Program-made: the position numbers | DNA from: Escherichia coli | GTDB lineage: Bacteria; Pseudomonadota; Gammaproteobacteria; Enterobacterales; Enterobacteriaceae | Strand: one strand, 5' to 3' | Length of the DNA stretch: 64,000 nucleotides | NCBI RefSeq assembly: GCF_016026235.1 | Contig: NZ_CP065613.1 | Part shown: piece by piece, positions 51,001 to 54,000 of the stretch | Layout of the letters: every line of letters starts with the position of its first letter | Position numbering within the stretch: position 1 is the stretch's first letter

Positions 51001-54000
51001 CGCACGATCGCGATGTCCGCGTCCGGCGTCGTCCAGATCGTACTCGAGGGTCACTGGCGAACGCATAGCCTGCGCAACGGCTTCCACCGCGGCTTCCGCC
51101 TGTAAAGCTCGCCCAAGGTTGGTATGCAGCACGGTTCCCGTCAGGTTGATCACCGGACGCAGCGCACTCTGCGCCTCTTTCGTCAACCGGGCATCGACTT
51201 CTTGCGCCCAGTTTTCACACCACGCAGGCAGCGTCTGGCTGCCACGAATCACTTCTCGCGCTTCGTCGAGCATCTGACGCAACAATTCCACCACGCGGGT
51301 GTGACCATAAGTATCACGCAAAGAAAGGAAGGAGCTATCGCGCAATAAGCGATCAATAGCCGGAAGTTGACTATAGAGGGAACGCGTTTCGGTTGTCATA
51401 GGAAACCTGGCTGATCAAGGCCCTCTCACACGGAGAAGGGCGTTTAACATAACCACGGATTGTAACGTGAGATGGGTCAGGAGGACATATCGCGCATCAA
51501 GCCTTTGGCGGTTCGGTGCGAGCAAAACTTTCGCGGCTAAACAGGTTTTCGACCAGTTTGACTAAGTGTGGGCGGTCGACACACCAACCTGGCGCAACGC
51601 GGCGGAAATTGAGATATCCGACGGCACAGGCAATAGCGATAGTCGCCAGATTGACCGTATCGGTTTTGAGTGTGCCATCGACCAGATATCCTTCCAGCAC
51701 ATCCAGACTGCGGTTGATTTTCTCCCGCTGGCGTAACAATTCATCTTCAGACTGCTGCGCCGCTGGACGCGCCTGTTCACGCACCGATACCAGCCCAGCA
51801 TCCATAATGCCATCCGCCAGTGCCTCAATTTTGCGCACCCGCAACGACTCCAGCGGATCGCGCGGCAACATCGCCGGAGCGACATTCATTAATTCAATAT
51901 ATTCAGCGATGATCGGCGAATCAAACCAGCATTCGCCCTCTTCGGTCACCAGCACCGGCACTTTTCCTAACGGGTTAAATTGCGCCACGCCGTTGTCCGC
52001 GTTATAGGGCAGTTCATTAATAAATTCGAAAGTTATGCCCTTTTCTAACAACAGAATAGAAAGTTTGCGTACAAACGGGCTGGTGTAGCTACCGACGAGT
52101 TTCATGCCGAGTCCTTTGTGCGAGGAAAAATATCAGTATGGCTCAGGCTCACGCAAAACACAGGTGATATAAGTCTCAATGATCCAAATAAAGATAATGC
52201 ATCCAGCTGGTCATTCTTAGCAGCACTTTTCGCATCACCGAAACATGGCTGAAATGGTCGGAGTAAACTGCCACCTGGGCGTAAATGCCGTCGGGTAAGG
52301 CATCGATATCATCGTTAGGGTCCAGTTCAATGGTTCCCAGCACACCGTCCGTGCCGGGCACGACCGTTAATGATTGCAATACCCCCTGCGCCTGATAAGA
52401 ACCGCCTGGCACGACAGGTAAAATACTGGTCAGTTTGCCGTGGAACACCTGCCCAGGTAGCGCGTTAAACACCACTTCCGCATCATCGCCAGGTTTCAGA
52501 CGTAACAGCGAGTTTTGCCGAAATTGGGCGACAATTTGCCGTTTTTGCTCGGGGATGAAGACCATCACCGGACGCAGCGGCAAGGCAGCGGCGTATGTGC
52601 CTGGGCGGATCAGTACCTGAGTGACGTAGCCATTGCTCGGTGCGCGAATGACGGTCTGTTCAAGGTTATATTTTGCTTCTGTAAGTTGCGCTCTTAAGCT
52701 CACAATCTGCGATTGCTCGCCGTTAACCATACTGTCGAGCTGGCTCTGGATCTGCGCCTGCTCCGCCACCGAGCCTTTCACCAGCGCATCCTGCGCGAGG
52801 AAATTTTGCCGCGCATCGTCGATGTCACGTTCCGAGAACGGATTCACCGCCGCCTGGCTGCCTTTCAGATAACGTTGATAATTTTTAAACAGACGGTCGC
52901 GCTCCGCTGAAACCTGGGTGGTGTTGGCCTGCGCTTCAGTGAGCTGCGCGCGCAGCGTCTTTATATTATGCGTCGCCGTCATCAGGTCAGCCTGAAGTCT
53001 GTCAACTCGCGCCTGGTAACGAACCGGGTCGAGCTTAAAAAGCACCTCGCCCTTTTGAATAAGCTGATTATTCTTGTCAGTGACTTCAGTAACAATTCCC
53101 GTCACCTGTGGCGTGATGGGGATCGCTATCACAGCCTTTTGCGCGGTAAAAGTGTAAGGGTGGTTGTAGTTCATCAACAAAATCAAACCACTCACCAGAA
53201 ACACGCCTCCCAGCGCCGCCGTCGCCAGCGTCCACTGATTCACCGGAATACGAAAGATTTTAAAGACCGCCCACGCCAGCGCCACATAAGTTAAAACAAT
53301 CAATAGATCCATAATTAGATCTCCGGGAACGTGGAATAGTCAGTCTTTTTCTCGGCGGCGAGTTGGTGCTCCAGCCGGGAAATTCGGTCAGAAAGTGCGG
53401 CGATTTCCGGGTCAGTCGCTTTCTCCTGCGACGCAACATGTGACTGCATACCCCAGCCACGCTCCGGTTGATAGAGCGTCGCCCAGATCCACAGAAACGG
53501 CCAGATAACATGCAGAGTAAACAGGCTCACCCAGCCCGCCGTATGAATAGCGTCGGCATGGGGATGGTTGCGCTTTTTGGCAATCAGATAAGGGATGTCA
53601 TGTATCGCGATGATTCCATAAAAAATCACCAGAAAGACGAAGATCAGCACTCCCAACGCGAAATAGTTTAGAAACATATTTGCCTCGGATTCACGTTTAT
53701 CAGTGTTGTTTTTTGGCTGGCAGCCAGAAGGGAGTCAGGCTGATATTTTGACAATAATCCGGGTTCGCGATTCTCGCCATAACACCAAAGAATAATTTTT
53801 AGAGGTGATGAGTTGCTTAGTTACATAACGATTGTATGACGAAGGCATAACATGCTGTAGATCACATCAGGTGAACGCCGTAAGAAAATATCTTGTGATT
53901 CAGATCACAAAGATTCAACAAACCATCAAAACAAAAATGTGACATTAGTCACATTTAAATGCCATTTTTAGCGAAAATCGCCGCCTTGTGGCTTTTTTAC

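Follow-up and report, generated by a model that had tools for sequence, protein, structure and literature searches.

Does the missing Rhs element between yibF and yibH in this strain record a deletion, or an older arrangement of the site? The DNA analysed here, referred to as the window, is a stretch of 64,000 nucleotides from Escherichia coli. An earlier note on it had placed yibF and yibH about 70 bp apart and had described the spot as an accessory-DNA hotspot that stands empty in this strain. The open reading frames (ORFs) and the sequence gave exactly 70 bp from the yibF start codon to the yibH stop codon (52106-52175), and the adjacency of the two genes is confirmed. Both genes lie on the minus strand with a short spacer between them, which is the organisation of an unoccupied allele. 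The interval very probably represents the chromosomal site of RhsA in its unoccupied, ancestral-type form, with an ordinary 70-bp spacer. The names yibF, yibH, and yibI are those of the RefSeq annotation in near-identical genomes. The features around the site are as follows.

selB, 48167-50011, minus strand: ORF
selA, 50008-51399, minus strand: ORF
yibF, 51497-52105, minus strand: ORF of 202 aa, glutathione S-transferase-like, with GST_N and GST_C domains (Pfam); left flank of the site
yibF leader, 52106-52142, minus strand: 37 bp, common to empty and Rhs-occupied alleles, the same in K-12 up to 52142
yibH-yibF spacer, 52106-52175, no strand: 70 bp, very probably the unoccupied form of the RhsA site
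Empty-allele segment TCAGGCTCACGCAAAACACAGGTGATATAAGT, 52143-52174, no strand: 32 bp, in place of which K-12 has 8,249 bp
yibH, 52176-53312, minus strand: 378 aa, HlyD-type membrane-fusion protein with HlyD/CusB-type domains (Pfam); right flank of the site
yibI, 53315-53677, minus strand: 120 aa, DUF3302 (Pfam); upstream partner of yibH
mtlA, after yibI, plus strand: ORF

The yibF-yibH interval of K-12 MG1655 spans 8,287 bp (yibF ends at 6956 and yibH starts at 15244 of the K-12 locus) and is annotated with rhsA, yibA, yibJ, yibG, yibS, yibW, yibV, and yibU. The gene order given in the earlier note, with rhsA and associated genes between yibF and yibH, is therefore that of MG1655, where the two genes are not adjacent. 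In BLAST alignments, window positions 51400-52142 matched K-12 locus 6251-6993 at 99.7% identity and positions 52175-53400 matched 15243-16468 at 98.2%. Between the two matches lies a clean substitution, in which 32 bases found only in the window (52143-52174) stand against 8,249 bases found only in K-12, and homology restarts at 52175, one base ahead of the yibH stop codon. The absence of the Rhs element from this strain, as the note had proposed, is thus borne out: the 70-bp spacer is all that is present, with 32 bp replacing the 8,249 bp of K-12. The K-12-type junctions at yibF (CTGGTGATGGG...) and at yibH (...CCCCCCTCCCC) are missing from the window and the 32-bp segment is found there instead. 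The K-12 element ends in unrelated sequences of 45 bp and 34 bp, and no direct repeats flank it. The two flanks differ in their divergence from K-12, with 2 differences in 743 bp on the yibF side and 22 in 1,226 bp on the yibH side; the last 243 bp of the yibF flank are identical to those of K-12-type occupied alleles.

Remnants of an Rhs element were looked for in the spacer, a check that the earlier note had suggested, and none was found beyond chance level by BLAST or with a shuffle control. The complete Rhs elements of K-12 and EDL933 gave no blastn matches anywhere in the 64-kb window. K-12 RhsA gave no tblastn matches in the same DNA, so the large GC-rich ORF for the YD-repeat core (about 1,200 aa conserved) that marks the RhsA-B-C-F subfamily is lacking. 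No toxin extension, immunity ORF, or orphan fragment was found at the site, and 70 bp leaves no room for an ORF; rhsA-CT/yibA, yibJ, yibG, and the other K-12 counterparts are missing between yibF and yibH of the window. The 32-mer has no word of more than 10 nt in common with the K-12 or EDL933 element, and 17-22% of shuffled 32-mers equal this length. The 10-nt word, GGTGATATAA, was considered as a relic of Rhs and rejected, being at chance level, inside sequence shared by RhsA and RhsC, and not at a boundary. Scars of former occupancy in the form of Rhs fragments, IS ends, or a duplicated target were likewise not found in the spacer, nor were repeats.

The direction of the change was addressed with an outgroup scan, in which one genome per species with YibF was used and 55 loci were returned. 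The order yibI-yibH-(61-92 bp)-yibF-selA without Rhs was found in E. whittamii, in Escherichia sp. E1V33 (a cryptic Escherichia clade), and in two GTDB-split "E. coli" representatives. The same Rhs-free order was found in C. amalonaticus, Kluyvera cryocrescens, Lelliottia, Huaxiibacter, Pluralibacter, and two further Enterobacteriaceae, and in C. koseri with a longer spacer of 174 bp. In more distant genera, yibHI is missing and mtlA adjoins yibF. The spacers of E. whittamii and E1V33 are 70 bp long and have 3-5 differences from that of the window, and they include the 32 bp that K-12 lacks. The 72-bp spacer of C. amalonaticus aligns with that of the window (p ~0.013 for the 30 nt upstream of the block GCCATACT) and contains a recognisable form of the 32-bp segment. 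In E. albertii NBRC 107761 (locus 89-781), a MOSC/YiiM-like gene, not yibH, lies directly upstream of yibF across a 57-bp spacer, and DNA homologous to this gene is missing from 5,426 E. coli genomes. The ancestral state therefore rests on the other outgroups, since E. albertii lacks the yibH-yibF adjacency. The outgroup arrangement argues for the empty allele as the older one. The state of the window cannot derive from K-12-type alleles by deletion, because those lack the 32 bp. As the 32 bp are present both here and in outgroup species, the "absent" Rhs element should be read as an ancestral arrangement retained or restored, not as a deletion.

A further Escherichia locus takes another form. 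Escherichia sp. MOD1-EC7003 (locus 1-3000), which is classified separately, has a K-12-type left junction and about 150 bp of the region upstream of rhsA, followed by a fragment of an H-repeat/ISAs1-like transposase (DDE_Tnp_1_assoc) and unknown ORFs in place of the Rhs core. Here the Rhs locus has been degraded or rearranged.

To place the strain among others, alleles were counted by junction type in 5,426 complete E. coli genomes. Of these, 1,521-1,523 (~28%) have the contiguous, empty junction. The K-12-type left junction was found in 3,750 and the right junction in 3,723, giving an Rhs-occupied share of ~69%. An island encoding a SPATE-like protease and fimbriae occupies the site in 143 genomes (2.6%), and the three main alleles together account for 5,415 of the 5,426. 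Every sampled Rhs-occupied genome breaks at the identical two bases, window 52142 and 52175. Because all of them share these junction bases, the Rhs allele at this site points to a single ancestral arrival and not to repeated insertion. In most E. coli, one ancient event would have brought in the Rhs element at the cost of 32 bp of spacer. The element gained would have comprised a YD-repeat core protein with a C-terminal toxin, an immunity gene, and orphan toxin/immunity fragments. Its content varies today, from 8,249 bp in K-12 to ~6.5 kb in EDL933, where the core extension is different and yibG is the next gene. RhsA and RhsC have the core and upstream sequence in common, and Rhs cores are multi-copy repeats of 3.7 kb.

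Two rare states were seen in the same genomes. In E. coli QL57EC (locus 9098-10348), IS1 truncates the 5' end of yibF, which is joined directly to yibL; this IS1-mediated deletion from yibF to yibT has removed the whole yibH-yibI-mtlADR-yibT region. In the "O157:H7" strain TR01 (NZ_CP033605.1), the 32-bp segment stands at both ends of the Rhs element (locus 14244-14275 and 20704-20735). The two copies sit within a ~52-bp duplication of window 52141-52192, and the K-12-type terminal 45 bp and 34 bp are lacking. TR01 was considered as a natural intermediate and set aside: among the 5,426 genomes no other has this junction, and an N stands at the left one. The record is explained either by an artefact of assembly or by a unique recombinant.

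The third allele was examined in E. coli DETEC-P793 (NZ_CP116115.1, locus 1352-11780), where the island measures 10.4 kb with 36.5% GC and its site corresponds to window 52143-52175. Its genes comprise a chaperone-usher fimbrial operon, one for an HTH regulator, and one for an S6-family (SPATE-like) autotransporter protease of 1,226 aa, in which an NCBIfam scan recognised the generic autotransporter barrel domain only. A diverged copy of the 32 bp of the window is kept on the yibF side of this allele. Two unrelated cargos, Rhs and the autotransporter/fimbrial island, thus occupy exactly this site in different strains, in line with the description of it as a hotspot for accessory DNA. Our literature search found no description of a SPATE island at yibF-yibH, and it gave nothing pertinent on the 32-bp detail either. 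Habouria et al. 2019 (PMC6592367) place the vat island at yagU-proA and the tagBC island at yjdI-yjdK, and the present island allele is distinct from both. Those sites are likewise intergenic, lie between conserved genes, and are filled with low-GC accessory DNA in part of the strains but vacant in the rest. At yibF-yibH, however, neither a tRNA gene nor an integrase was seen, nor were flanking direct repeats, and the Rhs cargo there differs from a classical integrative island.

The absence of the element is all that speaks for its precise excision or deletion from a K-12-like allele, and this explanation is effectively refuted. K-12-type alleles lack the 32 bp, which a deletion cannot regenerate, and other Escherichia species have the same 32 bp with no Rhs at the site. 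Nor do direct repeats beside the K-12 element offer a means of precise removal; an Rhs allele with flanking 32-bp repeats is known from one record only, that of TR01 with its N at the junction. The repeated Rhs element might instead have collapsed out of the source assembly, since multi-copy 3.7-kb Rhs cores can break or confuse short-read assemblies. Yet a collapse would not produce a 32-bp sequence that matches outgroup species, and the identical junction occurs in ~1,520 complete genomes, mostly from long reads. We regard such an artefact as practically out of the question.

A secondary loss deserves more weight. The lineage may once have had RhsA and later exchanged it for an empty allele from another strain; homologous recombination in the flanks would bring this about without a scar. 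Over 9.4 kb, the nearest relatives of the window (~99%) include O145:H28 strains with the empty allele, and O157:H7 strains are occupied, so that both alleles circulate among fairly close lineages. The uneven divergence of the flanks from K-12 (2/743 bp against 22/1,226 bp) is a mosaic compatible with recombination nearby, and the 243 bp of yibF flank identical to occupied alleles would likewise allow the empty allele to have been regained in this way. The same unevenness of the flanks, however, is seen between other strains, and positive signs of former occupancy are lacking. We consider this history unlikely, though it retains some plausibility; it would alter the past of the locus alone and not its present sequence.

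The ends of the Rhs element allow another reading of how the alleles arose. In K-12, the 22-25 nt abutting GCCATACT (K-12 locus 6994-7018, in yibF orientation) read CTGCCCTTTTTCCCATCACCAG. In the best of 13 non-independent comparisons, all of T-rich sequences, CTGCCCTTTTTCCCATCACCAG aligned at the same offset with the spacer of an Enterobacteriaceae MAG (p ~0.001) and with those of Lelliottia and Huaxiibacter (~0.007); the values were ~0.03 for the C. amalonaticus spacer, ~0.08 for E. albertii, and 0.16 for the empty allele of E. coli, with which it does not align. Since the left end of the K-12 element comes closer to the spacers of E. albertii and other genera than the E. coli empty allele does, the inserted DNA may in truth begin further in than the classical boundary indicates. 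At the other end, a C-rich run abuts the yibH stop, reading CCCCCCTCCCCC in the Rhs allele (K-12 locus 15230-15243) and CCCCTTCCCCC in the island (11768-11780); adjacent to the stop codon, the Rhs allele has TGA-GGGGGAGGGGGG and the SPATE-island allele TGA-GGGGGAAGGGG. Besides this run, nothing else shared between the Rhs and island alleles was detectable, and the run is missing from empty alleles and outgroups. The resemblance to foreign spacers, together with the shared G/C-rich run at the yibH stop, could be explained if the spacer were an old trans-specific polymorphic site and RhsA had come by allelic replacement from a lineage with cargo at the orthologous site. We think this rather improbable. 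If it were true, the classical limits of "8,249 bp for 32 bp" would be recombination or divergence boundaries and not the ends of an element.

The reading of the interval as an unoccupied, ancestral-type site fits what has been described for this locus. Work of the Hill laboratory by Feulner and colleagues in 1990 (reportedly in J Bacteriol 172:446) is said to have compared K-12 with an Rhs-less strain and to have found 8,249 bp in the one against 32 bp in the other. At the same chromosomal site, the window lacks the Rhs core, core extension, immunity gene, and H-repeat of the K-12 RhsA element. Rhs proteins belong to the polymorphic toxin/immunity systems. The C-terminal region of RhsA is growth-inhibitory and is neutralised by yibA, according to Poole et al. 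2011 (PMC3150448), who summarise work of the Hill laboratory. A strain without the RhsA element is therefore without the RhsA toxin and immunity genes at this locus.

The yibF/yibH interval is "position 10" in the survey of rhs genes by Jackson et al. 2009 (BMC Genomics 10:584; PMC2935791), where it is occupied in many, not all, of 20 E. coli/Shigella genomes. The flanking genes are the same, and the survey agrees with the 69% occupied and 28% empty alleles counted here. In that study, position 10 was inferred to arise after the split from a pathogenic group without the clade I rhs expansion, which is compatible with the polarity proposed here, and its origin was proposed to be a duplication of position 5 (rhsC). 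The duplication model does not address the spacer-like ~25 nt at the yibF end of the element, and the third allele, with the SPATE/fimbrial island, is not mentioned there. The empty yibF-yibH state is a common difference between strains that was already described, the polymorphism having been known since the Hill laboratory and catalogued again in 2009. The present strain belongs to the ~28% of E. coli whose yibH-yibF arrangement is ancestral, a result with little import beyond annotation. The census provides a reference for the site (69% Rhs, 28% empty, 2.6% SPATE/fimbrial island), and the details of the junctions are of possible interest for how Rhs loci spread.

Signals of function in the spacer are concentrated next to yibF. 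The yibF leader contains an AAGGA ribosome-binding motif (52112-52116), and the block GCCATACT lies at 52135-52142; the region of GCCATACT and AAGGA is conserved in Citrobacter, Kluyvera, and others. The 37 bp nearest yibF (52106-52142) occur in all three alleles, in their E. coli versions or as homologues. The Rhs substitution starts directly past GCCATACT, which suggests that the block is functionally constrained. It is possibly a -10-like or regulatory element, a putative promoter role assigned while no consensus sigma-70 promoter or terminator was called in the spacer. An Rfam scan of the spacer matched no family, and its predicted RNA fold is not stable (z = +1.2). Because the spacer has no terminator, an empty allele may yield a common transcript of yibIH and yibF. 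Where the Rhs element is present, 6-8 kb of genes in the opposite orientation part yibF from yibIH.

Several other differences were recorded elsewhere in the window. It is 99.9% identical to E. coli FDAARGOS_943, and 100% identical over 9.4 kb, but stems from a different genome, as BLAST shows by a 6.3-kb region lost from FDAARGOS_943 and by an extra IS in the window. An IS1-family element at 21898-22665 matches an IS1 of FDAARGOS_943 at 100% over 642 bp and an IS1A copy at 91% over 768 bp. The yiaT to yiaY region (41529-47829, 6.3 kb) is kept in the window and is lost beside IS1 in FDAARGOS_943, as seen by BLAST. At 46774, a Fic-family gene of 1.37 kb, which lies between aldB and yiaY in EDL933, TR01, and DETEC-P793, is absent from the window and from K-12; this aldB-yiaY site is probably the other empty hotspot meant by the earlier note. 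An IS of 1.3 kb (59026-60325), bounded by 22-bp terminal inverted repeats (59026-59047 and 60304-60325), separates yibL from the DUF3251/YadA-like adhesin genes. Its single ORF encodes a DDE_Tnp_1 transposase of 413 aa (59049-60290, minus strand), and the element is missing at that position in FDAARGOS_943, EDL933, and TR01. Between mtlA and mtlD, a block of ~115 bp (56152-56267) did not align with EDL933 or TR01. The mtlA-mtlD gap measures 230 bp in the window and K-12, 95 bp in EDL933, and 521 bp in DETEC-P793, which looks like putative length variation of repetitive extragenic elements.
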